DNA from: Candidatus Nanoarchaeia archaeon
Lineage (GTDB): Archaea; Nanobdellota; Nanobdellia; Pacearchaeales; GW2011-AR1
DNA: 64,000 nt
Assembly: GCA_041501125.1 (NCBI GenBank)
Contig: JBGQNO010000001.1
Span: 37,981-101,980, forward strand
Reading direction: 5' to 3'
Part shown: positions 2,260-63,476 of the stretch, piece after piece
Layout of the letters: every line of letters starts with the position of its first letter
Position numbering within the stretch: position 1 is the first letter of the stretch
The notes under the pieces: model-generated
The model's input: the letters and a program-made list of their open reading frames with translations, nothing else
Databases searched by the model: none
What the model was told of the DNA's origin: nothing
Made by a program: the position numbers and the translations under genes

Positions 2260-4896
2260 TTATCTGGAATAATGATGTCTTTCTTGTGATTTTTTCCTTA
2301 TAATCAAGACAACTACAATTGCGATTATTAAAACAGCAATTACAGCAATAATAATATATTTTGTCATGTTTGCTTTTGAGACTGCTTCTGGCGCGCCTGG
2401 CGTTGGCTGCGCTTCTGGCGCAGCAGACACAGGCACAGCCTGCATTCCTTTGATTGTGACATTTGCCTTGCTATTTGCTATTCCATTAAGCTTGATATAG
2501 ACATCATAGTAGTTGTCAGCATTAACATCAACTTTCCATTCATCTCCGATTGAAAGTGTCTTTTGTTGTGGAATACTTGAAACATTTATTGTAGCAGTCT
2601 TATTTGTCAGTTTGAATATGCCTACAGTATGCAATGTATTGTTTAGCTTGAATTCAAATCTCCATTTCTCTGCAAGCTCTTTTGTATATCCATCCTTGAA
2701 GCTTGCATCATTCGCAAAGAATGTTGCTATCCAGAATTCGCCACCGCCAGCAGCACCTCCACCTCCTCCAGCTCCACCTGTTGTTGTGCCTCCTGTAGAT
2801 GCTACAGATGTTGTGAAGTTATAAGTGCCATTAGTTGCGCAGTTTCCAGCCTGGTCGCATACAGTTGCATTGTAATAATAAAGAGTGCTTGCACTTAATC
2901 CGCTGATATCAACGCTTCCGCTGGGAGCGTAAGAGCTTGAAGTGGCAGATGAACCAAGCGAAGCTGATGTCCCGTAAGTTACATTAATGTTCACTGACTC
3001 ATTTGAAGTATATGAAATTGTTGCTCCGCTTGAAGACACTGATGAAATTACATTGGGCACAGCAGGAGCCTGTCTATCTACTGTAAAATTTGTTGTCACA
3101 CTGTTATTTAAGTTTCCAAGAGTATCATTGCAATAATATCTTGCGAGATAATTGCCTTCGGCTATAGAACTTGTGCAATTGAAATTATCGCCTAATTTAG
3201 TCATCGTGGCATTATTACTTCCATTGTTTAGAGTCATCCAGCATGCAGCAGAGTTTGCTACATCAGTAGAGTTTATATTAAACATTATGCTGACAGAATT
3301 TGTATAGGCTGACGATGGTGAAATTACAGTTACTTCCGGACCAACTGTATCAATAACAATGTCTGCCACTGATTGATTTGTATACTCGTTTCTGTTGTTT
3401 GAAGTGTCATAAGCTATAATCCACAAACCCGTCCCTTGCACTTGCCCCGCAGTTATGTAAGAAGAAACATCAATCAATCCATCCCACAATCCTGTTAAAT
3501 TATTATAAGACAGGTTAGAATAACAGTTACTTGGCTCGCAACTGCCATTGTTGATTCCATGTAAATCTGCCTGCACTAAACTTACATTTTGATCATCTGT
3601 AACATTTGCACTGATATTGATTACATTGTCAGAAAATGAAAAGAAGTTGTCTGGATTGTTTATTATTACATTATTTACAACCGGCAATTCATTGTCCACA
3701 TAAATATTCCATGACCTCATACTGCCCCACCAGTAATCATTAGCAGAAAAGGCAAATTGATAATTTCCAGAAGGCATATCTTGCGTCAAATTAACATTTC
3801 TCAAATCCCCTGGGTTATAAAGAGTTCTTGGTGTTAAATTATTCTGAGACCAGTTTCCTGTCTCAAAGTTAAAAGAATCTTTTTGTGGAACAAATTTACT
3901 TGCCCCAGAATGTATCAAACTAGTACTAATATTACATCCACTTTCATTGCACCAATCATCTCTTACTAAACCAAGCAGTCTTCCTGTCCAGATACTTCCT
4001 GTAAAGTTTGAAACATTATAAACAAGATGCCATCTCCATTCTCGGCATGATGGCATCATGCCTTCGCAAGTTTCATAACATGAATAATTACTTCCTGTTT
4101 CATTCTCATCAAAACATCCTGGAACAGAAACATAACTTGTTTTGTTATTTAAATTAAAATTGAAAACATAGTGCGCAGAAACATTTTCTCCATTAATGGA
4201 ATACTTCTCTGCATGCCATGTTTTATTAAACATCCCGCTTCTTGATTGATTGCAATTATCGCTGTCGTTTTCATTGCAGTGCTGTCCCCATTCTATAACT
4301 GTGTTATTGCCATTGTCCAGAACGTATACTCTAACATCTCGTAAATAAGTGTCTAAAATGTTTACTCTTGCATTCCATTGTTTCATAGAATAAAGACCGC
4401 CCATATTGCTTGTTTCTAAAGTTAATGTTGCATTCGGATTAATGAAAGGAGGAACATTATCAATCAAAATATTGCTAATATTGCTTTCATTGGAGTTGCC
4501 TGCTGTGTCATACGCAATTAATTGCAAAGAATAATTCCAGCATTCAGAATCAGGACAAGAGACATTAGTATCCCATGTACAAAGATAATCCTGATTAATA
4601 TTGTTTCCGCTGGCATCGAAACAAGCTGCATTCACAAATCCGCCAGTTTTATTATAAACATTAATGCTCCAATTTGCTAAGTTTCCTGCTGAAGCATTTA
4701 CAGTTCCGCCAATGTCAATAGTACTTCCGCCAACAACAGTCATGTTTGTTCCATTAATTTCATTTATCTTAACGTTGCCTTCTCCAATAACGACTTCAAA
4801 AGGAGTGGCTACTGCAAGAACAAAAGATATCACAATAAGAGACAAGAATATTAAGACTGCACCTAGAAATAAAACCGATTTTGCTTTTTTATTCAT
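2260..4896 (-). CDS. Large cell-surface glycoprotein (S-layer/adhesin-like). N-terminal signal/TM, dozens of N-x-S/T sequons, poly-Gly/Thr linker, C-terminal TM anchor with basic tail
   Basis: 878 aa ORF. N-terminal hydrophobic segment (VLFLGAVLIFLSLIVISFVLA). Extreme Asn/Ser/Thr richness with more than 50 N-x-S/T sequons. Internal GGTTTGGAGGGGGAAGGG linker. Pro/Ala/Glu-rich stalk (APEAQPTPGAPEA) followed by a C-terminal TM helix (YIIIAVIAVLIIAIVVVLII) and RKKSQERHH tail. Confidence 0.7.
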   Translation of the reverse strand: MNKKAKSVLFLGAVLIFLSLIVISFVLAVATPFEVVIGEGNVKINEINGTNMTVVGGSTIDIGGTVNASAGNLANWSINVYNKTGGFVNAACFDASGNNINQDYLCTWDTNVSCPDSECWNYSLQLIAYDTAGNSNESNISNILIDNVPPFINPNATLTLETSNMGGLYSMKQWNARVNILDTYLRDVRVYVLDNGNNTVIEWGQHCNENDSDNCNQSRSGMFNKTWHAEKYSINGENVSAHYVFNFNLNNKTSYVSVPGCFDENETGSNYSCYETCEGMMPSCREWRWHLVYNVSNFTGSIWTGRLLGLVRDDWCNESGCNISTSLIHSGASKFVPQKDSFNFETGNWSQNNLTPRTLYNPGDLRNVNLTQDMPSGNYQFAFSANDYWWGSMRSWNIYVDNELPVVNNVIINNPDNFFSFSDNVINISANVTDDQNVSLVQADLHGINNGSCEPSNCYSNLSYNNLTGLWDGLIDVSSYITAGQVQGTGLWIIAYDTSNNRNEYTNQSVADIVIDTVGPEVTVISPSSAYTNSVSIMFNINSTDVANSAACWMTLNNGSNNATMTKLGDNFNCTSSIAEGNYLARYYCNDTLGNLNNSVTTNFTVDRQAPAVPNVISSVSSSGATISYTSNESVNINVTYGTSASLGSSATSSSYAPSGSVDISGLSASTLYYYNATVCDQAGNCATNGTYNFTTSVASTGGTTTGGAGGGGGAAGGGEFWIATFFANDASFKDGYTKELAEKWRFEFKLNNTLHTVGIFKLTNKTATINVSSIPQQKTLSIGDEWKVDVNADNYYDVYIKLNGIANSKANVTIKGMQAVPVSAAPEAQPTPGAPEAVSKANMTKYIIIAVIAVLIIAIVVVLIIRKKSQERHHYSR

Positions 4897-4995
4897 CTCT
4901 TTTCTCGCACCTCATTTTACCCTGCTAATAGTAACAAAAAGCTGCTTATAAATATTACCAAAAACAATTTACCAAAGAAAAAAATATAAACAACT

Positions 4996-6214: not shown

Positions 6215-6412
6215 TTATTTTTTCTGCTGTTTCATCAGTTTTGAAACAATCCATATCCACAGATATGCCTGTGCAAGAATAACCACTGCGCTTAATAACA
6301 CGCTAGACATGCTTATAGCATAGTAATTCTTGATGGTCATATACAACGATGCCAGATATGCAAGCAGAAGAATGCCTAAAGAAACAATCGCAATCGTATT
6401 CCATGCTTTCAT
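6215..6412 (-). CDS. Small membrane protein (2 TM)
   Basis: 65 aa hydrophobic ORF, convergent with the upstream gene. No recognisable family. Confidence 0.3.
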   Translation of the reverse strand: MKAWNTIAIVSLGILLLAYLASLYMTIKNYYAISMSSVLLSAVVILAQAYLWIWIVSKLMKQQKK

Positions 6413-12677: not shown

Positions 12678-13180
12678 AATCTACCAGTTTTCCTTTTTAA
12701 AAACCTTTATATCATTTGAAGTATATCTCACACCCTCATTTCTCATGGAAACGTTTCCCGACGGTAAAATGAAATATTGTAACTCATAAGTAAAACATTC
12801 GCAAATCCACCTTCATTTCTTTTGGAGCATTATACTATTATATTATATATATTATATTATAGAAAAGCTTATAAATATATAATAAGAAAAATAAAATACA
12901 TTTCTTTATAAATCTTTTTACCTTTTCCACACGAAACCATGGGGAGAGGGTATTATTAGTCAAAACAGCGTTTAAAACAATGCGAACTTTTGAAAATCCC
13001 AGAATACTTGAAAATTTATGTTTATTCTACTTGATTCTGTTAGTTTGCTTATACACTTAATTCAAAATATTTACCAGGCCAACATTCATTAATTCTCACC
13101 TCTTTTTTTGCAATGTGCTAATAATAAAAATACATACTTTTTTATAGAAAAGTTTATAAACAAATTATCTCTACATCTCT
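12678..13180. promoter_or_regulatory. Putative chromosomal replication origin (oriC): ORB-like elements flanking an AT-rich unwinding element
   Basis: About 500 bp non-coding region directly upstream of orc1/cdc6. ORB-like element TCCACACGAAACCATGGGGAGAGGG at 12926-12950 (resembles the archaeal ORB core TCCA..GAAAC plus G-string). A second GAAAC-containing palindrome GGAAACGTTTCC at 12748-12759 in inverted context. Very AT-rich core 12830-12910. Confidence 0.55.
13141..13160 (+). promoter_or_regulatory. Archaeal BRE/TATA promoter for the PRC-barrel gene
   Basis: AAAAGTTTATAAA with TATA centred about 25 nt upstream of the ATG at 13182. A near-identical copy, TAGAAAAGCTTATAAATAT, lies at 12856-12878. 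Confidence 0.4.
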
Positions 13181-13181
13181 A

Positions 13182-13436
13182 ATGGACAAAAAACCATTCT
13201 CATCACTTCTCGGAAAGCTAATAGTAACAAAAGAAGGCAAAAGATTAGGTTACGTGAAGGATATCACATTCGAAACCAAGTCAGGAGAGCTTATACAGCT
13301 TGTTTTGAAGGACCCTTCAGCCTATACAAAGTCATTGAACCTTGAAAAAACACAAGAAAGCGAAACCTTGATACCATGCAATTCAATAATGGCTATTGGC
13401 GATTTCATCGTTGTTTCTGAAGAAGATATAATCTAA
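13182..13436 (+). CDS. PRC-barrel domain protein
   Basis: 84 aa. Pattern GKRLGYVKDITFETKSGELIQLVL...IMAIGDFIVV is typical of archaeal stand-alone PRC barrels. Confidence 0.5.
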   Translation: MDKKPFSSLLGKLIVTKEGKRLGYVKDITFETKSGELIQLVLKDPSAYTKSLNLEKTQESETLIPCNSIMAIGDFIVVSEEDII

Positions 13437-13437
13437 A

Positions 13438-13857
13438 ATGAAAATCATTGGATTTAACTTTACAAAAATTCTAGCTGAGAAAGAAGGGCCTGTAGAAGGC
13501 AAGGTCAATGTCACAATGGGCATTGATATATCACATATGGAAAAACAGAAGCTTTCTGCTATTGGCCAGGACGTAATCAAGGCAGATTTTAACTTCTCAA
13601 TTAAATATGAGAAGATGGCAAATCTCGATTTCAAGGGCGAGATATACTTTACAGCTGAAGAAGAAAAATTAAAGGAAGTCGTAAAGAAATGGAAGGACAA
13701 AAAAGTTCCAGACGATGTCCGGGTCCCGCTGTATAACTTGATTCTCACAAAATGCAATATTCGTGCTCTTGAGCTTGAAGATGAGTTTGGATTGCCAACA
13801 CACGTGCCTTTGCCAAAGGTTTCGAACAAGCAGCCAGAAACAAGTTACGTCAAATAA
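13438..13857 (+). CDS. Hypothetical protein
   Basis: 139 aa ORF starting 1 nt after the PRC-barrel gene (same operon). No recognisable motif. Confidence 0.35.
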   Translation: MKIIGFNFTKILAEKEGPVEGKVNVTMGIDISHMEKQKLSAIGQDVIKADFNFSIKYEKMANLDFKGEIYFTAEEEKLKEVVKKWKDKKVPDDVRVPLYNLILTKCNIRALELEDEFGLPTHVPLPKVSNKQPETSYVK

Positions 13858-13905
13858 GGTTCTTGACAACATAATTTAAATATAGTCTGTTATTTCTAAA
13901 AATAT

Positions 13906-14010
13906 GCTCCCGTCGCATAGCGGTATTGCGCCGGTCTCGAATTAAGCAAGTTCGCTTTCAAGCGAACCGGTTTCCGAAAGGATCTCCAGGTTCGACTCCT
14001 GGCGGGAGCG
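13906..14010 (+). tRNA. tRNA-Ser (anticodon CGA), type II with long variable arm, carrying a ~23-nt intron
   Basis: Acceptor GCTCCCG/CGGGAGC+G. 3-bp D stem. Anticodon stem CCGGT/ACCGG with loop CUCGAA-[intron]-A. Variable arm TCC-GAAA-GGA. T arm CCAGG-TTCGACT-CCTGG. No encoded CCA. Confidence 0.65.
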
Positions 14011-14220
14011 TGTCATATTGTTAGGCTCGCTGATGCTCGTCTTATTTTAAGAATTAATGTAATAAACGAGAAGAAGCTTGAGCAACCATTCTTTAGCTTG
14101 ATGAGGATTGCTGCTTAACCCAGAAGGGTAAAACGTGTTAACATTAATGAACAGCGAGCCATCAGGCGAGCTAAGAAATCAAATCAAAGATTTTATAAAT
14201 CCTCTAATTCTCGTTTTAAC

Positions 14221-14382
14221 ATGGCAGCAACAGCACCCGGACCACAAAAAAGAAAGCTAGACTATAATGTTGACAGGCAGGTTTACGACGAGTTTGTCAA
14301 AGCATGCACAAGGAAAGGTTATGCTCCAAATGTTATCATTGAGCAGATGATGAAGAAATATAATCAAACAGGCCAAATTTAA
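14221..14382 (+). CDS. Small ORF (53 aa), possible ribbon-helix-helix-like DNA-binding protein
   Basis: MAATAPGPQKRKLDYNVDRQVYDEFVKACTRKGYAPNVIIEQMMKKYNQTGQI. Below the ORF-track size cutoff. Basic N-terminus followed by a helix pattern reminiscent of RHH/CopG. Confidence 0.25.
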   Translation: MAATAPGPQKRKLDYNVDRQVYDEFVKACTRKGYAPNVIIEQMMKKYNQTGQI

Positions 14383-14432
14383 GAATAGTAAGAGGTGATT
14401 GCACCTCAGAAGCAGATTCTGAGAAAATTAAA

Positions 14433-35606: not shown

Positions 35607-35770
35607 AAAATAAAAAAAGCAAGACAGCTTTTTGGTTTCGCCTCTTGTGAAGACTACACCCAAAAACGTAACCAGCTTAACTTCTGTGTTCGGAAAGGGA
35701 ACAGGTGTTTCCTGGTTACTATGGCCGTCTTAACTTTAATCAATATGACTCGCTTTTAAAGTTTTCTATA

Positions 35771-35845
35771 CGCTCCCGATAGGATTTGAACCTACGATCT
35801 TCAGGTTAGGAACCTGCTGCTCTATCCAGGCTGAGCTACAGGAGC
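35771..35845 (-). tRNA. tRNA-Arg (anticodon CCU)
   Basis: Reverse-strand cloverleaf: acceptor GCTCCTG/CGGGAGC+G. D arm GCTC-AGCCTGGATA-GAGC. Anticodon loop UUCCUAA. T arm GTAGG-TTCAAAT-CCTAT. Confidence 0.7.
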
Positions 35846-35884: not shown

Positions 35885-36394
35885 TTAATGCTTCCAGAAC
35901 CAGAACCCTTTTTTCTTCTTTTCTTTTGGTCTTATGTAAACTACCTGCAAATCATAAGCTTGGGCTGATTTTGCCTGTACAAGATCTGATGTTATTAATG
36001 CAGATTTTGTTTTCATTGCAATCTCTCTTATCAGCGCATCAATTTCTCCTGATTTCGCAAATTTGATTTGCTGTTCAGTTGGTCTTAACCCATAAAAGTA
36101 AATGTCAATTTGGTATTTTTTCTTCAACTTATGCAGCTCAGCAATCTCATCCAAGCCCCGAAATCCTTCTTCTCTGCCTTTATTTGCTAGGTTTTCCAGT
36201 TCTGCCATCACCGCATTTGGAACTACAATTTTTCCTCGCAATCCCTTTGAAATCAATCTTGGCAGAAATTTGTTTATAACCGCAGAAGTGTCAACAACAT
36301 AGCTTCTTTTCTCTTTAGAAAACTGAGAACTGAGCGTTCTTCTGGCATGTGTCTTTACCTGCTGGCTTACTGATTTTTTTTTGAAAATAAACAT
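35885..36394 (-). CDS. PIN-domain protein (putative RNA-processing nuclease)
   Basis: About 170 aa from MFIFKKK. PIN-like YVVDTSAVI and LITSDLVQA acidic-residue segments. The track ORF start (36541) runs through the adjacent tRNA and is rejected. Confidence 0.5.
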   Translation of the reverse strand: MFIFKKKSVSQQVKTHARRTLSSQFSKEKRSYVVDTSAVINKFLPRLISKGLRGKIVVPNAVMAELENLANKGREEGFRGLDEIAELHKLKKKYQIDIYFYGLRPTEQQIKFAKSGEIDALIREIAMKTKSALITSDLVQAKSAQAYDLQVVYIRPKEKKKKGFWFWKH

Positions 36395-36402
36395 TTTTTC
36401 CA

Positions 36403-36486
36403 TGCGGGAGATAGGATTCGAACCTACGAAGGCACTAAGCCGCAGGATCTTGAGTCCTGCCCGTTTGACCGCTCCGGAACCCCCGC
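36403..36486 (-). tRNA. tRNA-Leu (anticodon CAA), type II
   Basis: Acceptor GCGGGGG/CTCCCGC+A. D arm CCG-GAGCGGTCAAA-CGG. Anticodon stem CAGGA/TCCTG with loop CUCAAGA. Variable arm GGC-TTAGT-GCC. T arm GTAGG-TTCGAAT-CCTAT. Confidence 0.75.
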
Positions 36487-36575
36487 ATGAATATCGAACT
36501 TTAAGGCTATTTATAAATATTTCACAGAATGCTATACACAAAACTTTAAAATGCGATTATTTTAATAGTATATAA

Positions 36576-40055: not shown

Positions 40056-41843
40056 ATGGCTGAAAATGAAAAGAGTTTAACTGACAGAATTGTTGATGCC
40101 TGGTTCTCAAAAGACAAAACTTTTGTTTATCTTACAATACTTCTTGTTCTTGGTCTGGTATTAAGAATTATTGCAGCTATGAACCTTGATGTTGCTGCAG
40201 ATGACATGCATTTTGCTCCTGGTGCTATCAATTTTCTTTCGTCAGGCAAGCTTGAATATTGGGACCAGTCAGCCGGACTTTGGTTTGCAGTTACTGATAT
40301 ATCCTATAAAATCCTTGGTGTGACACAACTTGCCTCGAGATTTGCACCAGTCTTGTTCGGCACGCTGCTTATATTTGTAGTATTCCTGCTTGCGAAAGAA
40401 CTATTCAAGGATAATAAAACTGCATTGATTGCATCGTTGCTTGTTGCTATCTCACCTTTCCATATAAAGAGCATGATGGCAGAGATGGATGTGATGGCAA
40501 TGTTCTTTGTTTTCCTTTCATTGTTCTTATTTTTAAGAGCATTGAACAACAATACCGATAAGAGGCTCTTGGCTCTGAGTGCGATTGCCCTTGGCCTTGC
40601 GATTTATACAAAAGTTTATCCTTTATTGTTTATTCCAGGCATGGTAATCTTCTGGTTTTATAAAAATCACAAAGAAAAAATTCAGGAAAGAGGAAGTTTC
40701 TACAAAACTCTTATTTTGTTTCTGGCAGTAATCTTTATTTTCTGTCTGCCAACTTTGACTCATAATTATCTACTTTACAAAGAAAAAGGCATAATGGACG
40801 TAAGATTTTCAGAGATACTTGGAATCAATAAAAGCTTAGATATGTACTCATGGGCAGCAGGTAGTGGAGCCAAGCCAGATTTTGCAGGATTTTTCTTAGG
40901 CAGGTCAGGAGCATATAATGGAATGCCAACTTCCCTGCTTGCTTTGTACTGGGTTTTTAATGCAGACCCGCTTGTCTTTATCCTAGGTATACTTGGTCTG
41001 ATTCTGCTCTGGAAGCGAAAAGATTTGTTGCTATTAATGGGTTTAATGTTTATATTTCCATTTGCATATCTTGCATCTCTTGTATTGCTAATTAAGCATT
41101 ATCTGTTTGTCTCACTTATTTTAACAATTCCAGCAGCAGCAACACTTGCAAGAATTTCAAAATTTGTGAGGCTAAGATACATTGCAGTAATTATAATAAT
41201 ATTCTCCTTAGTTTACTTGAGTTTTCCTAACCAGACAAATGCTCATTCGATTTACGAAAAGAGTACTATTGCCAAATTGATGGACTTTAAACAAAACATG
41301 AACCCAGAAGCTATAGTCCTGGTAGACAGCAGAGTATACAGAGGAGAGATGACATGGGCATTCAGTGATAGGCATTACCTTGAGGCCAGCTATATAAATG
41401 AATTTTTCAAAATGCAGGAAAACCAGACCAAAGTTTCAACACCTGTCTATTATATTGAGTGTGCAAGAGATGACTGTGGCTGGGGAACAGTTTACAACCA
41501 GCCAGAATTTAATGCAACAATGGAAAATATGTCAGCATACTTCAGAAGCATATCAAACAAAGTTGGAGCAATTAGTGATGCACAAGGAGAATACTTTGAT
41601 GTTTACAAAACTGAAATGAATCTTGTTCCGCAATCTGCGTCAATTGTAGATTTGACACATAATTGGTGGCTTTATCCTCTGGGCTACAATAAGCAGATTT
41701 CAACAATCTTTGATGAGTATACACCAAAGTCATTTTCAGGAATCTTGCTTAATAACATAGCCCATGCAATACTTTATTTTTCAATAGCAGCATTCCTTTC
41801 AATACTGGTTGTATTATACCTGCTAATTAAAGAATTATCCTGA
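40056..41843 (+). CDS. GT-C membrane glycosyltransferase (GT39/GT83, PMT/ArnT-like)
   Basis: 595 aa. About 11 N-terminal TM helices with an acidic DD motif in the first extracytoplasmic loop (DVAADDMHF). Large C-terminal soluble domain and a final TM. Confidence 0.55.
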   Translation: MAENEKSLTDRIVDAWFSKDKTFVYLTILLVLGLVLRIIAAMNLDVAADDMHFAPGAINFLSSGKLEYWDQSAGLWFAVTDISYKILGVTQLASRFAPVLFGTLLIFVVFLLAKELFKDNKTALIASLLVAISPFHIKSMMAEMDVMAMFFVFLSLFLFLRALNNNTDKRLLALSAIALGLAIYTKVYPLLFIPGMVIFWFYKNHKEKIQERGSFYKTLILFLAVIFIFCLPTLTHNYLLYKEKGIMDVRFSEILGINKSLDMYSWAAGSGAKPDFAGFFLGRSGAYNGMPTSLLALYWVFNADPLVFILGILGLILLWKRKDLLLLMGLMFIFPFAYLASLVLLIKHYLFVSLILTIPAAATLARISKFVRLRYIAVIIIIFSLVYLSFPNQTNAHSIYEKSTIAKLMDFKQNMNPEAIVLVDSRVYRGEMTWAFSDRHYLEASYINEFFKMQENQTKVSTPVYYIECARDDCGWGTVYNQPEFNATMENMSAYFRSISNKVGAISDAQGEYFDVYKTEMNLVPQSASIVDLTHNWWLYPLGYNKQISTIFDEYTPKSFSGILLNNIAHAILYFSIAAFLSILVVLYLLIKELS

Positions 41844-46389: not shown

Positions 46390-47745
46390 ATGGCAAAAGT
46401 TCTTTTGATACAGCCAAATTATGATATCAGCACACCGTATAGATGGCAGTCAGAAGCATGGATGCCGCTTGCCCTTGTCTCACTGGCAACTTATGTCAGA
46501 GACAAGAAAGGTCATGAAGTCAAAATTTATGACAGAAACTTGGACTATAACAATAACGGTTTTATTAGCATTTTAAGAAAATTTAATCCAGACATTGTTG
46601 GTTTAACATGTTATACATCACCTGCAATAAAGGATGTTATGCAGGTTTCTAAAATTACAAAGGAAAATTCCAAGGCAATAGTTCTTGTAGGTGGTCCGCA
46701 TGCCACGCTTGAGCCAAAGTCATTGCTTGATTATCAATACATTGATTATGTTGTTCGTGGCGAGGGCGAGCAGCCTCTTCTAGAAATCTGCGACCTTGTT
46801 GACAAGAAAAAAGCTGCAAAAAATAACATCTCAAAATTGAAAAACGTAAACTATAATGAAATGAGGCCCTTCATTAATCTTAACGATGTTCCTATAATGG
46901 ATTACGACCTGATTGATGTCAAAAGATACACAGTAACTACCTTTGCAACCAGCAGGGGCTGTCCGGGAAGATGCAGATTCTGCTACAACCAGGGAAGAAA
47001 GTTAAGATTCTATGATACTGCAAACACAATTGAGATGATGTCAAGAGTGATAAAAAAATACAGGATAAAAGAGTTTACAATAGCAGACGATAATTTTGCA
47101 AACATGAGCAAGAGAACTACGGACATATGCAATGCCTTGGCAAAATATAATTGCTCATTTTTCTGCTTTCTAAGAACTGACCAAGTCTATGACAAGGTAA
47201 TGTCTGAGTTAAAGAAAGCAGGTTGTCTTACAATTCAGTTTGGTTTTGAATCAGGCAGCCAAAGAATTCTTGATTTTATACGCAAAGACAATACAGTTGA
47301 GCAGAATGCAAAAGCTGTTGAGCAATGCAGGAAATACGGGATTTTTGTAGAAGGAAGCTTTATGATTGGACTGCCGACTGAAACAACCCAGGAACTTCAG
47401 CAAACAATCAGCTTCATAGAAAAAAATAAGCTCGATAATGTATTTACAAAAGTCTACAAGCCATATCCATCAACCGAACTTTATGATTATTGCATACAAA
47501 ACAAGCTGATGAAAAAGCCGGAAACACTTGAGCAGTGGATTGAATTCTCAAATCTTTCAGAAGGCAACATAAACGTGAGTGACATTCCCACACAGGTTTT
47601 GCTTAAGGCATTGCAAAGAACCAATAAACACGACGTATTAATGTACATTAAGAAAGGTTTGATAATGGTAAAAAGAGGAAACATCAGCTACGCATTATTG
47701 AGAGCCAAGCAACTGATAACTCAGCAACTTAAGAAATTCATTTAA
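46390..47745 (+). CDS. B12-binding (class B) radical SAM enzyme
   Basis: 451 aa. N-terminal cobalamin-binding-like domain. CxxxCxxC radical SAM cluster motif SRGCPGRCRFC. Confidence 0.8.
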   Translation: MAKVLLIQPNYDISTPYRWQSEAWMPLALVSLATYVRDKKGHEVKIYDRNLDYNNNGFISILRKFNPDIVGLTCYTSPAIKDVMQVSKITKENSKAIVLVGGPHATLEPKSLLDYQYIDYVVRGEGEQPLLEICDLVDKKKAAKNNISKLKNVNYNEMRPFINLNDVPIMDYDLIDVKRYTVTTFATSRGCPGRCRFCYNQGRKLRFYDTANTIEMMSRVIKKYRIKEFTIADDNFANMSKRTTDICNALAKYNCSFFCFLRTDQVYDKVMSELKKAGCLTIQFGFESGSQRILDFIRKDNTVEQNAKAVEQCRKYGIFVEGSFMIGLPTETTQELQQTISFIEKNKLDNVFTKVYKPYPSTELYDYCIQNKLMKKPETLEQWIEFSNLSEGNINVSDIPTQVLLKALQRTNKHDVLMYIKKGLIMVKRGNISYALLRAKQLITQQLKKFI

Positions 47746-51165: not shown

Positions 51166-52274
51166 TTAAATGAAATCTAAGCCACAATAACAATTCTTGC
51201 ATACAGGCAACATCTTGTCTATAAAAGCATTTTTTCTAAATTCTTTAAATTTCTTAGAGTTCCATATGTTATCAATATTATCAGTTAGAATATTTCCCAT
51301 ATTCATTCTAATAAAACCACATGGAATTATGTCACCATTATAGTCCAAAAAAAGCATGTTTCTTGCCGTGCAGATTAGTCTCTTTGACCTTAAACTGAAT
51401 ACATTGTAATTAGACGATTCTTTTAAAATAGGGTTAATCTCAATCCGGGCATCAATATTTTTCATTCTTTTGTATGTTTCAAAAAACTCTTTTATACTAA
51501 TATTATCACTTTGCATACAAGTCGATATCATCCCCCCCCCCCGTCAATAATTTTTAATGTATCTTCAATTTGCCCACTTTTCATATTTTGAATAGGATAA
51601 GTTAACCCAAATGATTTTGTCCCTAGGTCCTTGCACAATTTAATAACTTTTTCTGCATCATGAATGTTCTCTTTTTGCAAAACAAAATTAATACCCACAT
51701 CAAAATTTTTAGTCAAAATTTTTATAGTCTTTACTGTTTTGTTAAAAGCCCCGATTCTTCCACGGATTTTGTCGTGAGACTCTTGTAGTCCATCTAAGGA
51801 TATTGAGACGCCGGTAATCGGATAGTTCTTTAATTTCTCTGCAATATTTTCATTGATAAGAGTACCATTGGTTCCAAATTCTATGTTCATTTGATTGTCT
51901 TTTATACAGTCAAGAATTTGAAACAAATCATCTCTCAGAAGGATTTCACCACCAGTTAAACAAATCTTTTTGATGCCAAACTTCTTTAAAGAGAATATAG
52001 CCTTCTCAATCTCTTTTGAAGACAACTCATCTGCATGCAGTTTATTCAGATTTTTAGCTCTGAACTCTTTTTGATGGCACATCTGGCAATTTAGATTACA
52101 TCTCATAGTAAGAAAAATTAGAGCATTTTTTGGCTTAGGAAAGTCTGCCATATTCTTAATCCTTGAATAATCTACTCTTTTCTTTAATTTTGAATATGCT
52201 CTTATTATATACTCGCCAAAGATGTTACTATCTAATGATTTTATAAGTTTTTCTTTCAAAAGTTTAAAGTTCAT
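51166..52274 (-). pseudogene. Radical SAM enzyme with C-terminal SPASM domain, split by a frameshift inside an 11-nt poly-G/C tract
   Basis: Upstream part 51528-52274: CNLNCQMC radical SAM motif, ends ...IIDGGGG then TGA. Downstream part 51166-51531: SPASM Cys motifs CTARNM...CGF...CKNCYCG. A +1 G (12 G) would fuse the frames. Confidence 0.75.
51532..51542. repeat. Homopolymeric C(11) tract (G(11) on the coding strand) at the frameshift site
   Basis: Read directly: tccccccccccccg spanning 51532-51542. Confidence 0.9.
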
Positions 52275-55415: not shown

Positions 55416-56906
55416 ATGGCTAAGAAAATTCTTTTGGGCGCAGAATATTCAGTTTTAGAGCCCCTGGCATTGTTCTATCTTTCAGCAGTCGCCAAATCTG
55501 AAGGAGTTGAGTCTAAAATTGTTTTTGGCAGAGGCCCTCAATATCCAGAATGGAGAGAAGCTTTAAGCACATTCCAGCCTGATTTTCTAGGACTAAGTGT
55601 CTATACCGGACACCATGCTGCAATCAAAAAATTCTTAAAAGACGTCGTCAAGCCAAAATATCCAACTCTTGAAGTAATTGTTGGAGGCCCTCATGCAACC
55701 TTCTTTCCAAGACAGGTTTTAGATTTTGCAGATTACGTTGTTGTAGGAGAGGGATTTGGTTCATTAAGAAAAATTTTGAAAGGTGAAGCTCCAAAAGGGA
55801 TACTTCTCCCACTGGATAAGGAACAGTTTCCAAAGTCTGACAGGGATGATTTTTACAAAGAATACCCGGAGCATCTTAAAAATAGAATCAAGAATGTTAT
55901 AGCTGGAACAGGCTGCCCATACATGTGTTCATATTGTTATAATAGTGCAAATTTTGACGAAAATCCTGACTTTGATGAATCACAGAAAAAACTTTTGCTT
56001 GAAAAATATCCTCATAAAAGGTTCTTTCCCTTGGAGCAAAGGCCTGTTCAGGATTTTGTTGATGAAATTTCAGATGTCCTCAGATTATCTCCTGAGACAG
56101 AATTTTTTTATTTCCAGGATGATGTTTTTGGCAGTAACCTGGACTGGCTGAAAGAATTTGTTTCCAAAGCTTCTATAATGGACATATCTTTCCATGCAAA
56201 TACACGATTTGAACATATTGACCCAAGAAAGGATTCTGGAAAAGAAAGAATTGACTTGCTGAAAAAAGCAGGCTGTACAGGGTTTTCAATAGCTATAGAA
56301 TCAGCAGACCCTATTATTTGCAGGGAAGTTTTGTCAAGAAATCTCGACCATGATTTAGTATTTGCTTCAATGAATTATCTTCATGAGCACGGATTCAAAG
56401 TCAGAACCAATAATATGCTTGGACTGCCGCTTGGAGCAACTATGAATCCGACAAAAGTCAATCTTGAAGCAGACCTGGAAACTCTTGAGCTGAATGTCAA
56501 GTTATACAAAGAATTTGGCATTCCAACTTTCGCATGGGCTTCTACACTTGCACCTTATCCAGGAACGCATATTGACAGATACTGCAAAGAGCATGGTTTC
56601 TATGAGAATGTCTTTACAGATTTAACAGGAGAAGAAACCTACAGGATTAAAAGTGTTCTAAGGCATCCAAGAAAATGGGTTGGCTCGGAATTATCATCAA
56701 AAACACCTGAGGTATGGCTGTCCAATTATGAAGAGGAAATGTACAGGAATCAGATTAATACTTTAATGAACTTATTTCCGACTTTTGCGAAAATTCCTGA
56801 TGGGCATAAACTTGCCCGGGAATTTTTAGAACACGATAATCTTAATTTTGAAGTTCTTAATAAAGCATTCAGAACGCATGTATACAATAAAGAACTCTTT
56901 TTATAA
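55416..56906 (+). CDS. B12-binding (class B) radical SAM enzyme
   Basis: 496 aa. N-terminal B12-binding-like fold. Cluster motif GTGCPYMCSYCYN. Confidence 0.75.
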   Translation: MAKKILLGAEYSVLEPLALFYLSAVAKSEGVESKIVFGRGPQYPEWREALSTFQPDFLGLSVYTGHHAAIKKFLKDVVKPKYPTLEVIVGGPHATFFPRQVLDFADYVVVGEGFGSLRKILKGEAPKGILLPLDKEQFPKSDRDDFYKEYPEHLKNRIKNVIAGTGCPYMCSYCYNSANFDENPDFDESQKKLLLEKYPHKRFFPLEQRPVQDFVDEISDVLRLSPETEFFYFQDDVFGSNLDWLKEFVSKASIMDISFHANTRFEHIDPRKDSGKERIDLLKKAGCTGFSIAIESADPIICREVLSRNLDHDLVFASMNYLHEHGFKVRTNNMLGLPLGATMNPTKVNLEADLETLELNVKLYKEFGIPTFAWASTLAPYPGTHIDRYCKEHGFYENVFTDLTGEETYRIKSVLRHPRKWVGSELSSKTPEVWLSNYEEEMYRNQINTLMNLFPTFAKIPDGHKLAREFLEHDNLNFEVLNKAFRTHVYNKELFL

Positions 56907-56943: not shown

Positions 56944-58305
56944 ATGAAAATCAACCTTATCGTTCTTCCATTTGAAGAAAATGTCAAGTCACCGCCGATT
57001 TGTCTCGGTTATATAGCCTCGCTTTTAAAGAAAGACAGTAATGATATCAAAATCATAGACTTAAACTTTGAAACTCAGATTTCTCAGGCAGATTTGAATA
57101 TTGTAACTACAACAACAGTCGATTACTATAACTGCCCTTTATTGAATATGGATGTTATTGACAAATGGCTCTCTGTTATTTCCAAGATAAAAACACCCCT
57201 TGCAGTCATAGGTCCGCATGTTACAACAATGCCTGAATATTTTGAAAAATATGCCCAGTATCTTGTTGTAGGCGAGCCAGAACTCACAATAAAAGAACTG
57301 GTTGTTTCATTAACAGAAGGTAAGTCACTAAAAAATATAAAAGGACTTTATTATAAGCAAGGCAGGAAATTTATCAAGAATAAGTCCCGTGAATTGCTTC
57401 AAAATCTCGATAGTTTGCCTTTTCCAGACAGAAGTTTGATTGATAATTCTCGCTATGTTAATCCAGTATGCAAAAATCATCCTTACACGATGGTCATTTC
57501 AAGTAGAGGATGTCCATACCACTGCACATACTGTTATATGGATGTCTACGGGCATTTTTGGAGAGCAAGAAGCGCTAAAAATGTAGTTCAAGAATTAATA
57601 GAAATCAGAAGAAAGTATAATATAAAAGAAATTGTCTTTCGCGATGATTTATTCTCGCTTGACAAAAAGCGCGTTATAGAAATCTGCAATGGTATTGTAA
57701 AGAATAATCTTGATTTGACATGGACCTGCCAGACCCGGGTTGATTCTGTAGACGAAGAAATAATAAGCAAGATGAAAGAAGCCGGCTGTTACTCTATATC
57801 CTTTGGCATAGAAGCCGGCTTGCAAGAGATGATGAACCGGTTGAAAAAAGGAATTAAAGTCGAGCAGGTCAAGAAAGCAATCTTTCTCTGCAAGAAATAT
57901 GATGTAAGAACAAGAGGATATTTTATAATTGGCTGTCCAGGCGAGACAAAAGAATCAATTCAGCAGACACTTGAACTTGCCAAAGAGCTTGACTTGGACT
58001 ATTTTATGCTTAGTATACTAACACCATATCCTCAGACAGAAATTTATGAAGATGCTTTTAAGAAGCGAATTATTAAAAAACGAAGTTGGGATGAAGCGCT
58101 GAGATGCGCAGGCATTATTGAAACGCCTTTTACATTCAATGAACTTGTGAAAATGAAGCGTGATTTATATTTAAGATATTATTTCAGGCCAGGATACATA
58201 CTGCCAAGATTAGCGCCTGGAAAAATAGACATGCTTTACCATGGCTTCATGCCGTTTGTCAAAAACATGATGATAAGAAAATTCAGAGGCAAAAAACTGG
58301 ATTAA
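56944..58305 (+). CDS. B12-binding (class B) radical SAM enzyme
   Basis: 453 aa. Cluster motif SSRGCPYHCTYCYM. N-terminal B12-like domain. Confidence 0.75.
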   Translation: MKINLIVLPFEENVKSPPICLGYIASLLKKDSNDIKIIDLNFETQISQADLNIVTTTTVDYYNCPLLNMDVIDKWLSVISKIKTPLAVIGPHVTTMPEYFEKYAQYLVVGEPELTIKELVVSLTEGKSLKNIKGLYYKQGRKFIKNKSRELLQNLDSLPFPDRSLIDNSRYVNPVCKNHPYTMVISSRGCPYHCTYCYMDVYGHFWRARSAKNVVQELIEIRRKYNIKEIVFRDDLFSLDKKRVIEICNGIVKNNLDLTWTCQTRVDSVDEEIISKMKEAGCYSISFGIEAGLQEMMNRLKKGIKVEQVKKAIFLCKKYDVRTRGYFIIGCPGETKESIQQTLELAKELDLDYFMLSILTPYPQTEIYEDAFKKRIIKKRSWDEALRCAGIIETPFTFNELVKMKRDLYLRYYFRPGYILPRLAPGKIDMLYHGFMPFVKNMMIRKFRGKKLD

Positions 58306-59498
58306 TTCTTGACAAGTTTTCTGTACATGCTAAAAGTTTCCTTGGCAATCTCTCTCCACGAGAATTTCTTTTCTGCTGTTTTCCTTGCAATCTTGCCAAG
58401 TAAATCTCTTTTCTTTTCATTTCCCAGAAGACTCGTAAGCTGTTTTGCCAGTTCATCAGATTTAATTGGGTTAAAATACAGAATTTCTTTATTCTTGCCG
58501 AGTTCCATGTTTGGTGCAATGTTTGATGATATTATTGCAAGCCCAGACGCCATTGCTTCAAGCAGGACAAGAGGCAACCCTTCTGCAAAACTCGGAAGAA
58601 CAAAAATATCAGCAGCCCGGTAATATTCAGGCATTTTGATATTCTCAACACTTCCAATAAATTTGACATATTGCTGAAGATTGTTTTCATTGACAAAATT
58701 CATAATCTCCTCAAAATATTTTTTATCATCAATTTGCCCGATAAAAATGAATTTTACATTCTTGTCCTTGGACAAAACTTTTGGAATAGCTTTGATTATT
58801 GCCATCTGGTTCTTGATTCTTGAAATCCTTGCAACGCACAATACTATCTTTTCATCAGTCTTGGCAAGCATTTTCCTCACACCAGACTTGCCTGGATAAA
58901 ATTTGATTAAATCAACACCATTTGAAATATGAATAACTTTTTTGGAATCAACACCTGCGCGTTTTTCTATTGATTTTTTTAAGGTTTCAGACACTGCAAC
59001 GACCTCATCAGCATTTTTGAAGCATAGTCTTTCTACTGAAGTTTTCAGCCAGAATGTCTTTGGCAGCATCTCATTGGACAAAGTCCAGAATGGTGTGTGC
59101 AAAGTATAAACAAATTTGCTTTTGTAAAATAATCTGTTCATTAACGAGAGTGCAAAGCCAGTGTACTGGTTATGGCAGTGTATTATGTCAAATTTCTCCT
59201 TACACATCAAAGGAATGAAATTAACCAGTGTCTTGATTGTGTATAACATTCTTCTTGCCACATGTCTTAATGTGCCAGGTGTTGTGTATACATCAGGCCC
59301 CCATGCTTTTGGCATGTCAATATTATGGTAGATAACCCCGGATAATTTATCTCGGTTATTATCCTTAAAATCAAGGATATGAACCTCACAAAGCTTGCTA
59401 AGTTCCTTTGACAGGTTGTATGCTACAGATTCTGTTGCTGTAGCACTCTTGGCAGAAATTGAGGACATTCCAGTCCCGACTTGCAAGACTTTCATGAC
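58302..59498 (-). CDS. Glycosyltransferase family 4 (GT-B)
   Basis: Start trimmed to MKVLQVGTGMSSIS. The track ORF extends to 59786 through low-complexity sequence. FAEGLPLVLLEAMASGLAIIS motif. Confidence 0.7.
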   Translation of the reverse strand, partial: VMKVLQVGTGMSSISAKSATATESVAYNLSKELSKLCEVHILDFKDNNRDKLSGVIYHNIDMPKAWGPDVYTTPGTLRHVARRMLYTIKTLVNFIPLMCKEKFDIIHCHNQYTGFALSLMNRLFYKSKFVYTLHTPFWTLSNEMLPKTFWLKTSVERLCFKNADEVVAVSETLKKSIEKRAGVDSKKVIHISNGVDLIKFYPGKSGVRKMLAKTDEKIVLCVARISRIKNQMAIIKAIPKVLSKDKNVKFIFIGQIDDKKYFEEIMNFVNENNLQQYVKFIGSVENIKMPEYYRAADIFVLPSFAEGLPLVLLEAMASGLAIISSNIAPNMELGKNKEILYFNPIKSDELAKQLTSLLGNEKKRDLLGKIARKTAEKKFSWREIAKETFSMYRKLVKN

Positions 59499-59547
59499 AT
59501 ACAGAAAAGAAAATAATTTATAAAGGTTGCCTGTTTGTCCGATTGCA

Positions 59548-60423
59548 ATGATAAGCGTAATCATAACATCATACAAAGAACCTGGAACCATAGGAAGAGC
59601 TATAGAATCAATTGCTGAACAGAAGCTTCTAGATACTGAAATTATAGTTGTAGCTCCAGATATGGAGACGCTGGCAGAAGCAGGCAAACTCCGGCAGAAG
59701 TATAAGAATTTGCGATTAATACAAGATGAGGGCAAAGGAAAGTCATCTGCACTCAACTTGGCAGTTTCAAAAGCAAAAGGAGACATTCTTGTGCTGACTG
59801 ATGGCGATGTTTACGTTGGCAATGACTCTATACTTCCACTTTTAACACCTTTTACTGACGGCAAGATAGGTGCTGTCTCTGGAAATCCAGTCTCATTAAA
59901 TCCCAAGGATAATAAATTTGGTTTCTGGGCGTATGTTCTGACGAAAGTAGCAGATGAAAGAAGAATTTATGCCTCTGAGCATAATCTCAGATTTTTCTGT
60001 TCAGGATATCTGTTTGCAATCAGAAAAAAACTTTTTCCAAATCTTCCAGAAGACTTGCTTTCAGAAGACGGATATATCTCGCATAAAGTCTATAAAGAAG
60101 GATTCGAAATCGCATATTCTTCAGAATCTAAGGTATTTGTGAAGTATCCTGATAACTTTGATGGTTGGATAAAGCAGAAGAAAAGAAGCGCCGGCGGTTA
60201 CAATCAGATTAAAAAAATGATAGGTGTGGAAATTCGTTCATTTAAAAAAGAATATTCGGGCGCGATTTCATTCTTCAAGTATTTTAAAGGTTTGAAAGAG
60301 CTGTTGTGGCTTTTTGAACTGTTCGCAGCCAGAGTTTATCTATGGATTATTATCTATCGGGATATAGATGTCAAAAATCAAAGCCATCATAAAATCTGGC
60401 AAAGAGTAGAAAGCACAAAATAA
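59548..60423 (+). CDS. Glycosyltransferase family 2 (GT-A)
   Basis: Start trimmed to MISVIITSYKEP. SALNLAVSKAKGDILVLTDGDV DXD region. Confidence 0.7.
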   Translation: MISVIITSYKEPGTIGRAIESIAEQKLLDTEIIVVAPDMETLAEAGKLRQKYKNLRLIQDEGKGKSSALNLAVSKAKGDILVLTDGDVYVGNDSILPLLTPFTDGKIGAVSGNPVSLNPKDNKFGFWAYVLTKVADERRIYASEHNLRFFCSGYLFAIRKKLFPNLPEDLLSEDGYISHKVYKEGFEIAYSSESKVFVKYPDNFDGWIKQKKRSAGGYNQIKKMIGVEIRSFKKEYSGAISFFKYFKGLKELLWLFELFAARVYLWIIIYRDIDVKNQSHHKIWQRVESTK

Positions 60424-61880: not shown

Positions 61881-63476
61881 ATGCCAGAATCAGAGAAACT
61901 TGAAGATAAAAAGAAACAAAGATTGAAAGAATGGCTGTCTGACAGAAGCAATCTTGCACTTATTGGAATCATGATTTTTGCCTTTATAGTAAGGCTGTAT
62001 TATTATTTCTTGACAAAAAATCAGCCCATGTGGTGGGATGAATCAGGTTACATGGCAGCTGCCAAAAGTTATGCAGGCATCGGACACTACCAGCTCGAAA
62101 ACATCAGGCTTCCAGGATTTCCACTTCTAGCCTCAATATTTTTTAGGATAGGATTAACAAGCGAACCATTAATGAGGTTTGTTCTGTTGTTCATTCCATC
62201 AATAATCTTGATTTTCCTTACATACAAGATGATTAAAGAAATGTATCCTGACAAAAGAATAGCATTAATTTCAACGGCAATCATAACAGTCTTATGGGAG
62301 AATCTATTTTACAGCAACCGCTTCCAGACAGAGAATCTGGCAATTGTATTTGAATTCCTCGCAATATTTATTCTGTTCAAATCATATATTAAAAAAGAGA
62401 ATTCTTGGTTTATCTCGCCAAAATACTCTTTAGTATGGGTCACGTTACTTGCTTTTGTTTCAATACTTTTCAGGCCAGGAAACGTAATGTTCGTGCCGGC
62501 AGTCTTCCTTTTTGTAATTATACTGAATAAATCCATAATATTCAGTAAAAAAGGTTTAATTGCCTCAGCAATTTTAGTAGTTGCGGCAATCTTAGCAGTA
62601 ATTTTTATTCCTAAGATTGCCGGTGCGCTCATTAGCTATTACTACCATCCTGAAAGACCCCTGGCACTAAATGTCTTGTCAGTATTTTACGGATTTTATC
62701 AGTCATCAATATCCTGGCTTCCATCATTGTTCTTCTGGGCATTCCTTTTCGGTATATTCTTGTTAATCCTGGACTTTTCTATAAGCTTTGATAAATTCAA
62801 ACAGATTGCAGTTAATGGAGAAAATCTTGACTTTAAGTCAGATGTATTTAATATACTGCTTATTATCTCAATCCTTTTCATTTTTATATTCCTAATGAGA
62901 ACATATGACGGATTTGAGTACAGGTGGTTTTTCCCTCTTCTACCAGGCATGCTTGCATTTACAAGCAAAGGAGTTATAAGCTTCTCACAATATCTTGCCG
63001 GAGCATTTAAAAATAAGAAATTTGCAACCGCTCTGATAGTTATTATTGTTCTGCTTGGAGTTTGCACTCAACTAGTTCATGCTGATAACATCATTCGAGC
63101 AAAACTTGATTCATACTTGCAGGTTAAACAATCTGGCTTGTGGCTAAAAGAAAATTCAAATCCTAATGACATAATAGTCAGCGCATCTGTGCCGCAGCAT
63201 GCATATTATTCTGAACGGCAAATTGAAAATTTCTATGTTAACAATTCTAATGAGAATGAAACTGCATTTGACCAGAAACTTCTAGCACTTAAGCCGAAGT
63301 ATCTTGTTATCTCAGTCTTTGAGCCGGGTTTCCAGCCAGATTGGGCGCTTGCATGGCCTTCAGAACATAATCAAACAGCAACTCTGGTTCAGGCATATTA
63401 TCTGGATTCTGCAAAACAGCAGCTTGCGTTGATAATTTATGAACTGAAATATGGTCAAAACAATAGATTATTATGA
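61881..63476 (+). CDS. GT-C membrane glycosyltransferase (PMT/ArnT/GT39-like), second copy
   Basis: 531 aa, about 11 TM helices. DE motif in the first loop (PMWWDESGY). C-terminal soluble domain. Confidence 0.45.
   Translation: MPESEKLEDKKKQRLKEWLSDRSNLALIGIMIFAFIVRLYYYFLTKNQPMWWDESGYMAAAKSYAGIGHYQLENIRLPGFPLLASIFFRIGLTSEPLMRFVLLFIPSIILIFLTYKMIKEMYPDKRIALISTAIITVLWENLFYSNRFQTENLAIVFEFLAIFILFKSYIKKENSWFISPKYSLVWVTLLAFVSILFRPGNVMFVPAVFLFVIILNKSIIFSKKGLIASAILVVAAILAVIFIPKIAGALISYYYHPERPLALNVLSVFYGFYQSSISWLPSLFFWAFLFGIFLLILDFSISFDKFKQIAVNGENLDFKSDVFNILLIISILFIFIFLMRTYDGFEYRWFFPLLPGMLAFTSKGVISFSQYLAGAFKNKKFATALIVIIVLLGVCTQLVHADNIIRAKLDSYLQVKQSGLWLKENSNPNDIIVSASVPQHAYYSERQIENFYVNNSNENETAFDQKLLALKPKYLVISVFEPGFQPDWALAWPSEHNQTATLVQAYYLDSAKQQLALIIYELKYGQNNRLL

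Follow-up and report, generated by a model that had tools for sequence, protein, structure and literature searches.

A probable membrane-anchored, N-glycosylated surface protein with an exchangeable cysteine-rich head and a conserved membrane-proximal cassette in a DPANN archaeon

The stretch of DNA analysed here, 64,000 nucleotides of contig JBGQNO010000001.1 from a Candidatus Nanoarchaeia archaeon (the window), encodes close to its start a protein of 878 amino acids (aa), which we suggest is an anchored, heavily N-glycosylated surface protein. Its gene is an uninterrupted ATG-to-stop open reading frame (ORF) on the minus strand at 2260-4896, comprising 878 codons and the stop codon in the ORF listing, and an identical protein is also called as a gene on contigs at NCBI (GCA_041480385.1) and at JGI. 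An earlier reading of this DNA made from its letters alone (the sequence-only reading) had singled out this ORF as encoding an archaeal surface-layer (S-layer) or surface glycoprotein, and the ORF is as it described. A divergent intergenic region of 99 bp (4897-4995, minus strand, as are all features of the gene given below) is common to this gene and a neighbouring TctA-family permease gene. Read directly from the sequence, it contains a Shine-Dalgarno-like GAGGTG at 4908-4913, 11 nt before the ATG, and a putative A/T-rich, TATA-like element, ATATTTATAA, at about 4946-4955.

Kyte-Doolittle hydropathy reveals two hydrophobic segments in the protein, aa ~8-30 and aa 846-868, corresponding to the signal or transmembrane (TM) segment and the C-terminal TM helix that had been proposed earlier. 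The first forms part of a predicted Sec-type signal peptide, possibly an uncleaved signal anchor (aa 1-30; 4807-4896), which is recognised from hydropathy and from the N-termini of homologues, these being alike in their order of basic, hydrophobic and then small residues. It consists of an MNKKAK n-region, a 21-aa hydrophobic core and a cleavage motif, A28-V29-A30, directly before T31. Since this motif agrees with the -3/-1 rule, it is a likely signal peptidase I site, with cleavage probably after A30. Two other kinds of signal were rejected, a class III (prepilin-type) signal by eye, because [KR][GA] followed by hydrophobic residues is missing, and a lipobox, because the signal peptide has no Cys. 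At the other end, the TM helix (aa 846-868; 2293-2361) reaches a hydropathy of 3.9 and is modelled by AlphaFold2 as a helix spanning aa 842-875. The predicted cytoplasmic tail that follows (aa 869-878; 2263-2292) is basic, as had been noted, and with R867 and K868 of the helix end it reads RKKSQERHHYSR. K/R-rich tails are present in all aligned homologues, and by the positive-inside rule the basic tail would place the ectodomain outside the cell. No NCBIfam model for a PGF-CTERM or archaeosortase-type sorting signal matches at E<=1, and the C-terminus reads ...PTPGAPEAVSKANMTK-TM. The mature protein would have a mass of 92 kDa and a pI of 4.6, with 19 Cys, all of them in the ectodomain, and a Cys+Met content of 3.8%. 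The ectodomain of about 815 aa is acidic, with a pI of 4.4.

The ectodomain is a string of domains, the borders of which were drawn from recurrent "xxID-xx-P" junctions together with structure predictions. It begins with the head domains D1 and D2. D1 (aa 31-148; 4453-4806) is a beta-sandwich according to the AlphaFold2 model and the conservation in alignment A4, and carries four invariant Cys (92, 106, 114 and 119) and nine sequons. D2 (aa 149-401; 3694-4452) is modelled as a large all-beta, Cys-rich module with eight Cys and 16 sequons, and has no match in Pfam. D3 (aa 402-517; 3346-3693) appears Ig-like from its AlphaFold2 strands and from a weak DUF4625-like Pfam match (E 0.014, below the cutoff), and it still lies inside the 68%-identical block shared with the homologue P0002. 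D4 (aa 518-610; 3067-3345) is a Big_13 bacterial Ig-like domain, placed by Pfam (PF19077) at aa 523-607 with E 1.6e-6 and 29 bits against a gathering cutoff of 27, and D5 (aa 611-698; 2803-3066) is FN3-like, with a weak Pfam match to Pur_ac_phosph_N at aa 619-696. A Gly/Thr/Ala hinge (aa 699-719; 2740-2802), seen in the sequence and as low pLDDT (AlphaFold2's per-residue confidence) in the model, separates these domains from the foot domain or C-module (aa 720-822; 2431-2739), which is defined by alignments A1-A3. The foot is joined to the TM helix by a Pro/Ala/Glu stalk of 23 aa (aa 823-845; 2362-2430), SAAPEAQPTPGAPEAVSKANMTK. The internal hinge string of the sequence-only reading, GGTTTGGAGGGGGAAGGG, is found at aa 702-719, and its PTPGAPEA stalk lies within aa 823-845. 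Gly-rich linkers occur at the equivalent position of the hinge in the homologues P0003, P0004, P0005 and P0011, and the spacers that homologues have in place of the stalk are acidic or Pro/Thr-rich and variable in length.

Database searches add little to this anatomy. With the full protein at E<=1, Pfam gives only Big_13 above threshold, plus the weak DUF4625-like and FN3-like matches, and NCBIfam gives nothing meaningful. Sequence searches of the PDB return nothing significant, whether the query is the whole protein or a profile of the head or of the foot. The Ig-like appearance of the repeated segments is nevertheless upheld, by the Big_13 and FN3-like matches, by the all-beta AlphaFold2 models and by the beta-sandwich arrays found with Foldseek. 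An enzyme was considered and rejected, because neither the Pfam and NCBIfam searches nor the fold search shows a catalytic domain.

The protein contains 49 N-x-S/T sequons, none of which has Pro at x. In 2000 composition-preserving shuffles of the protein the expectation is 19.7 +/- 3.8 with a maximum of 31, so that the observed number is about 2.5 times that expected; the control motifs number 24 (reversed, [ST]-x-N) and 21 (offset, N-x-x-[ST]). The enrichment noticed in the sequence-only reading is therefore real, though its count of more than 50 was slightly too high. The density is 5.6 sequons per 100 aa, against at most 1.5 per 100 aa in every other credible gene of the window. Eight of the sequons in the head (N67, N75, N82, N121, N224, N294, N353 and N369) stand in the same alignment column as sequons in 14-20 of 20 homologous head segments, where about 1.3 would be expected by chance at the ~35% identity found among these segments. 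Conservation of position at such identity indicates that the sequons are under selection. It follows that the sites are likely to be used and the protein to be extracellular, and this is the strongest computational evidence of the analysis. Among the retrieved proteins, the ratio of observed to expected sequons is about 2-3 in those with a foot or a head and about 1 in those that match only through the FN3-like domain. Because the latter class acts as an internal control, sequon enrichment appears to follow the archaeal family and not the fold. In the foot, two sequons, N771 and N812, are retained by slightly more than half of 128 distinct copies. Hydropathy, the A-x-A motif, the positive-inside tail, the conserved Cys and sequons, and a layout repeated in more than 50 homologues together point to a protein that is almost certainly extracellular and N-glycosylated.

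The head is conserved in more than its sequons. D1 plus D2 make up a unit of about 350 aa that can be repeated, as several giant homologues have it in tandem. Pfam searches give no family for it. In an alignment of 21 head sequences, 12 Cys are conserved in 16-21 of the 21. The AlphaFold2 model of aa 31-522, built from this alignment, is all-beta with a pLDDT of 81.8 and a predicted TM-score (pTM) of 0.73. Its Foldseek neighbours in the PDB are macroglobulin (MG) domains of complement and A2M, Bap, the MpIBP ice adhesin and the Ig-like domains of PrgB. Because the TM-scores (structural similarity scores) are below 0.3, the resemblance is a generic one. Still, the adhesin-like arrays of beta-sandwiches and the tandem heads of giant relatives suggest that the head most likely binds something, and by analogy we consider a ligand or another cell surface the most likely target. 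The best explanation of the upper tier (aa 35-520) would be a Cys-rich, lineage-specific and exchangeable functional part.

In contrast to the head, the foot is shared widely. Its core motif, ATINVSS-PQQ-TL-IG-E-K-DV--D-YYDL-VKLNSI---KANIT, aligns at 28-58% identity among proteins with otherwise differing ectodomains. AlphaFold2 models it as a compact domain of nine beta strands (pLDDT ~96), followed by the disordered stalk and the TM helix. A hidden Markov model (HMM) of the foot matches the 878-aa protein with E 1.5e-50, leaving 54 aa C-terminal of the domain, and it matches 88 of 170 retrieved proteins, with one copy in each. In nearly all complete homologues the foot lies 40-90 residues from the C-terminus. 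At two loci (L061, 1596-3773; L063, 5746-6867) it stands directly after an N-terminal TM segment, with the remaining ectodomain C-terminal of it in a type-II orientation; the L063 protein has a Cys-rich region further on. Since the foot is adjacent to the membrane in both anchor polarities, a pedestal or docking role is favoured over a C-terminal sorting signal. A single His, Ser and Gly and a Tyr-Asp pair of the foot are almost invariant. The conservation of His, Ser and Asp prompted the idea of an autoproteolytic, SEA/GPS-like domain, for which we found nothing in support. The foot has no Pfam or NCBIfam model and no sequence relative in the PDB, and Foldseek gives no fold match in the PDB below E 0.09. 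Against predicted viral structures, Foldseek returns two matches at E<=1e-3 (an unnamed protein of 96 aa with TMt 0.73, and another unnamed entry) and, more weakly, ORF23 of His1 virus. We treat these model-based matches as generic small beta-sandwiches and as uninformative, and a search of IMG/VR revealed no foot domain encoded by a virus.

The wider family follows the same division into two tiers. A word-indexed homology search with the full protein found four relatives, and with the foot alone one; the main relative is a protein of 1472 aa that is 68% identical over aa 35-519. An exhaustive HMMER search yielded 6915 representatives at E<=1e-3, of which 242 lie at E<=1e-30. The best 150 matches fall into three classes. 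About 17 share the head (aa ~45-400/520) and are mostly giants of 1100-3500 aa; 66 share the foot, with a best stretch that in most cases begins at the FN3-like domain, takes in hinge, foot and stalk, and ends at the TM helix; and the remainder match the FN3-like domain only, without a foot. D5 is usually contiguous with the foot cassette, many representative matches aligning aa ~600-870 in one piece. The lower tier is thus best explained as a conserved cassette of FN3-like domain, Gly hinge, foot of about 100 aa, stalk and TM helix, common to hundreds of differing proteins of the lineage. Several genomes have two or three foot-bearing genes, in tandem at three loci (L016, L029 and L050) and at two separate loci in four metagenome-assembled genomes (MAGs). 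The source organism has only one within the ~74 kb covered. At L029 (1823-6684, a Nanoarchaeota MAG) three foot-bearing genes stand in tandem, with sequon densities of 0.7-3.5 per 100 aa, and in each of the encoded proteins an additional domain of ~110 aa separates the foot from the C-terminal TM segment.

The foot appears to be largely confined to one group of archaea. We scanned one genome per GTDB species with alignment A3, using narrow patterns that are biased towards close relatives and taking the taxonomy from record titles. Of the 59 genome loci with a foot, 53 are titled Woese-, Pace- or Nanoarchaeota or Nanoarchaeia, five are titled only "archaeon" and one is titled Acidobacteriota. 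The last (L027, CAVTZX010000014.1, binned as "Acidobacteriota bacterium") has a foot 56% identical to the foot query, and it is most likely a mis-binned DPANN contig and not a bacterial homologue. In the window, the surface gene has as neighbours archaeal housekeeping genes, namely those for Orc1/Cdc6, both PolD subunits (DP1 and DP2), the TctA-family permease, a DRG-type GTPase and a diphthamide-synthesis protein. At L046, in a Pacearchaeota MAG, genes for the GTPase, an M16 peptidase and an arginase come after a foot-bearing gene in the order of the window, and in a Woesearchaeota MAG (L028) a foot-bearing gene comes directly after that for PolD DP2. The PolD and Orc1/Cdc6 neighbours, the taxonomy of the foot loci and this synteny bear out the suggestion of a DPANN-like organism.

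These positional counterparts have only the foot in common with the 878-aa protein, at 40-44% identity. Because the foot is kept while the N-terminal domain differs, we conclude that heads have been exchanged at a conserved locus. The counterparts carry a second type of head, marked by a conserved "F-E/Q-F-N-G-T-V" right after the signal peptide, which sits at the locus held by the Cys-rich head in the window organism. This second type is the more widespread, being present at L010, L011, L015, L017, L022, L028, L033, L037, L039, L041, L046 and L048, and over its first 280 aa L028 and L046 are 47% identical. No conserved partner gene was found at the foot loci: each neighbour in the window recurs at no more than one other locus, and the commonest neighbour family among the other foot loci is present at only 11.

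Two small genes for predicted membrane proteins lie near the surface gene. One, at 1927-2223 on the plus strand, encodes 98 aa with one N-terminal TM segment and is convergent with the surface gene, whose 3' end lies about 40 bp away. The other, at 6215-6412 on the minus strand, encodes 65 aa with two hydrophobic stretches and lies about 1.3 kb off, on the far side of the TctA gene. No Pfam family covers either protein, and foot-bearing genes of other MAGs have neither of the two as a neighbour. Upstream of the Orc1/Cdc6-PolD DP1-DP2 cluster, the region 12678-14432 is mostly non-coding and A/T-rich and includes a direct repeat of 39 nt (12845-12883 and 13130-13168, 79% identical). This region may be a replication origin with elements like origin recognition boxes. 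Elsewhere in the window there is a 5S rRNA gene (35619-35732, minus strand), with a tRNA gene 39 nt away (35771-35845) and a further tRNA gene at 36403-36486, which lies inside a mechanically listed ORF (35885-36541). No 16S or 23S rRNA gene lies near the 5S gene, which is therefore unlinked from the large rRNAs.

The other end of the window bears on the glycan. The region 40-64 kb had been read as a glycan-making island, and its gene content agrees: glycosyltransferases of families GT4, GT2 and GT9 (the last with two heptosyltransferase-like genes), GtrA, a Wzx-type flippase and an epimerase/dehydratase, together with a cytidylyltransferase-methyltransferase fusion and at least six methyltransferases. 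PMT_2-type GT-C enzymes are encoded at 40056-41843 and 61881-63476, B12-binding radical-SAM proteins at 46390-47745, 55416-56906 and 56944-58305, and a radical-SAM protein without the B12-binding domain at 51528-52274. As an observation on its own, the island (40056-64000) is unusually rich in modifying enzymes. As mechanically listed, its GT4 ORF (58302-59786, minus strand) overlaps the GT2 ORF (59527-60423, plus strand) by about 260 bp, and the TTG start of the latter is probably placed too far upstream. SecD and SecF are encoded at 36.7-39.2 kb. No other exported protein of the window is sequon-rich, and the 878-aa protein is plausible as a candidate acceptor of the island's glycan, as the sequence-only reading had proposed. 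The argument is circumstantial, the sole link being a distance of about 35 kb, and further acceptors are probably encoded in the rest of the genome.

Taken together, we suggest that this Woese-/Pacearchaeota-type DPANN archaeon displays the 878-aa protein on its surface in a type-I anchored, heavily N-glycosylated form, with a head that probably has a binding function. We give this reading a probability of roughly 0.6. In this model the Sec system would export the protein and the signal peptide would be cut, probably after A30. Outside the cell the ectodomain would fold into a string of about seven beta-sandwich domains with up to six conserved disulfides, and AglB would glycosylate many of the 49 sequons. 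The C-terminal TM helix would tether the protein, with the basic tail in the cytoplasm. The conserved cassette would serve as a membrane-proximal pedestal with a flexible joint, and the exchangeable head could act in adhesion or recognition, a host cell being one possible target; host attachment by this protein, as raised in the sequence-only reading, is speculation. Several observations weigh against the proposal. The window encodes no STT3/AglB, and no unannotated multi-TM ORF in it could be one, so that the capacity for glycosylation is presumed to be encoded elsewhere in the genome. The generic fold matches of the head point to no ligand-binding site, which makes adhesion an analogy. With no solved relative of the foot, the pedestal role is drawn from position and conservation. 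Finally, the 21-aa core of the signal peptide is long and might remain as a second anchor.

This last point leads to an alternative in which the N-terminal segment stays uncleaved and both ends of the protein sit in the membrane, the ectodomain forming a loop on the outside. A hydrophobic core of 21-23 residues does have the length of a TM helix, and an equal ambiguity has been reported for the S-layer protein of Micrarchaeum (bioRxiv 10.1101/2021.04.28.441871). However, an A-x-A motif follows the core directly, homologues have comparable small-residue motifs, and about seven rigid domains tethered at both ends would be sterically awkward. Thus, we consider retention of the segment very unlikely. 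An alternative of another kind is that the protein is the main subunit of an S-layer lattice, its Ig-like domains tiling the surface and its TM helix anchoring the lattice directly. A predicted secreted, acidic (pI 4.6) protein of ~92 kDa that is sequon-rich, Ig-like and C-terminally anchored shows general traits of archaeal S-layer proteins and falls within their general profile (40-200 kDa, pI 4-6, exported, glycosylated). Multiple Ig-like domains are a feature of candidate DPANN S-layer proteins too (bioRxiv 10.1101/2023.10.27.564410), and one S-layer structure, that of Deinococcus HPI, is among the fold matches of the head, at rank 24. More specific evidence points the other way. There is no S-layer match at E<=1 in Pfam (S_layer_N/C, DUF1608) or NCBIfam (TIGR01564, TIGR01567), and no sequence match to any solved S-layer protein in the PDB, to halobacterial csg or to SlaA/SlaB. 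S-layer proteins are classically almost devoid of sulphur-containing residues, at least according to a review as cited in bioRxiv 10.1101/2021.04.28.441871, and 19 Cys and a Cys+Met content of 3.8% are atypical in this respect. The head is patchy in distribution and tandem in giant proteins of 1100-3500 aa, members of the family vary greatly in size, several foot-bearing genes can occur per genome, some of them in tandem, and syntenic counterparts carry unrelated heads. A lattice role is therefore the less likely one, and in our judgement improbable. Of the earlier assignment as an S-layer or surface glycoprotein we retain the anchored surface glycoprotein and not the S-layer, given the lack of an S-layer family, the sulphur content and the multiple copies.

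It is also conceivable that the protein is a non-specific glycocalyx or shield, in which glycans protect the cell or vary the surface that faces viruses and the head has no specific ligand. The sequon density is extreme and under selection, and the swapping of heads between lineages at one locus is what would be expected of a surface that varies because viruses or hosts exert pressure on it. In Nanoarchaeota, surface proteins are fast-evolving, with raised non-synonymous diversity (PMC6142677). On the other hand, the fold of the head, its 12 Cys and many residues outside the sequons are conserved at ~35% identity, and the head is duplicated as a unit. Such conservation and duplication argue for a defined structure and function, and not for a mere carrier of glycans. 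We therefore consider shielding alone an unlikely explanation. Shielding and binding are not mutually exclusive.

A further proposal concerns the foot and goes beyond the single protein. The foot could be an undescribed module of Woese- and Pacearchaeota that docks diverse surface proteins, with interchangeable heads, into one membrane-proximal assembly, which might be a basal lattice that they share or a partner or processing factor common to them. We put this forward tentatively and regard it as unlikely. If true, it would amount to a cassette system in which heads are swapped at conserved loci and the surface facing hosts and viruses is thereby varied.

The abundant, uncultivated Woese- and Pacearchaeota are believed to spend their lives attached to other cells, and their envelope proteins offer the only way to find out how. 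The foot family provides a marker of surface-displayed proteins across the lineage, and the head family a Cys-rich module with conserved glycosylation sites. Both could be used for listing surface proteins, for choosing targets for glycoproteomics and cryo-electron tomography, and for studies of head swapping at conserved loci.

The protein can be compared with several known systems. The csg protein of Haloferax volcanii has six Ig-like domains, is N- and O-glycosylated, and is lipid-anchored after its PGF-CTERM has been processed by the archaeosortase ArtA. The 878-aa protein has in common with csg its acidity, its sequons and its row of Ig-like domains, and also its C-terminal end, where a stalk of the Pro/Thr type leads into a hydrophobic segment and then a basic tail. 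Unlike csg, it is Cys-rich and has no archaeosortase signal in NCBIfam, and its sequence resembles that of no PDB chain. SlaB of the Sulfolobales is a membrane-anchored S-layer stalk with beta-sandwich domains and a C-terminal TM segment. The type-I topology and the glycosylated beta-sandwich domains on a C-terminal TM anchor are similar in our prediction, though the 878-aa protein has no coiled-coil stalk, no adjoining SlaA-like partner gene and no sequence relationship to SlaB. The tandem beta-sandwich arrays of the Bap BSP domain (7c7u), MpIBP (4p99/5irb), PrgB (8beg), complement C4/C5 and A2M serve surface display and binding and are the best Foldseek neighbours of the head model. The likeness of these bacterial Ig-like-repeat adhesins and MG proteins to the head is limited to TM-scores below 0.3 and identities of 7-12%, and they differ from the 878-aa protein in anchoring, through RTX/type I secretion (T1SS) or LPXTG, and in having no N-glycosylation. 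Proteins with Big_13 (PF19077) are related through aa 523-607, which pass the Pfam threshold and yet make up only ~10% of the protein, whereas its head and foot have no Pfam model.

The closest counterparts, compared by description only, are the surface glycoproteins of Nanobdella-type DPANN archaea, which have a signal peptide or N-terminal TM segment, 13-49 sequons and 4-7 predicted Ig-like folds (bioRxiv 10.1101/2023.10.27.564410). Like the 878-aa protein, they have a C-terminal TM helix, come from DPANN genomes and lack informative sequence annotation. Some of them contain thermopsin, lectin or pectin-lyase folds, none of which was found here. The features that define this class, namely a signal or TM segment, sequons, Ig-like folds, a single C-terminal TM helix and a DPANN genome, are all present in the 878-aa protein. 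The protein thus represents a known kind in a rather ordinary way, and what its analysis adds are two unannotated domain families, the head and the foot.

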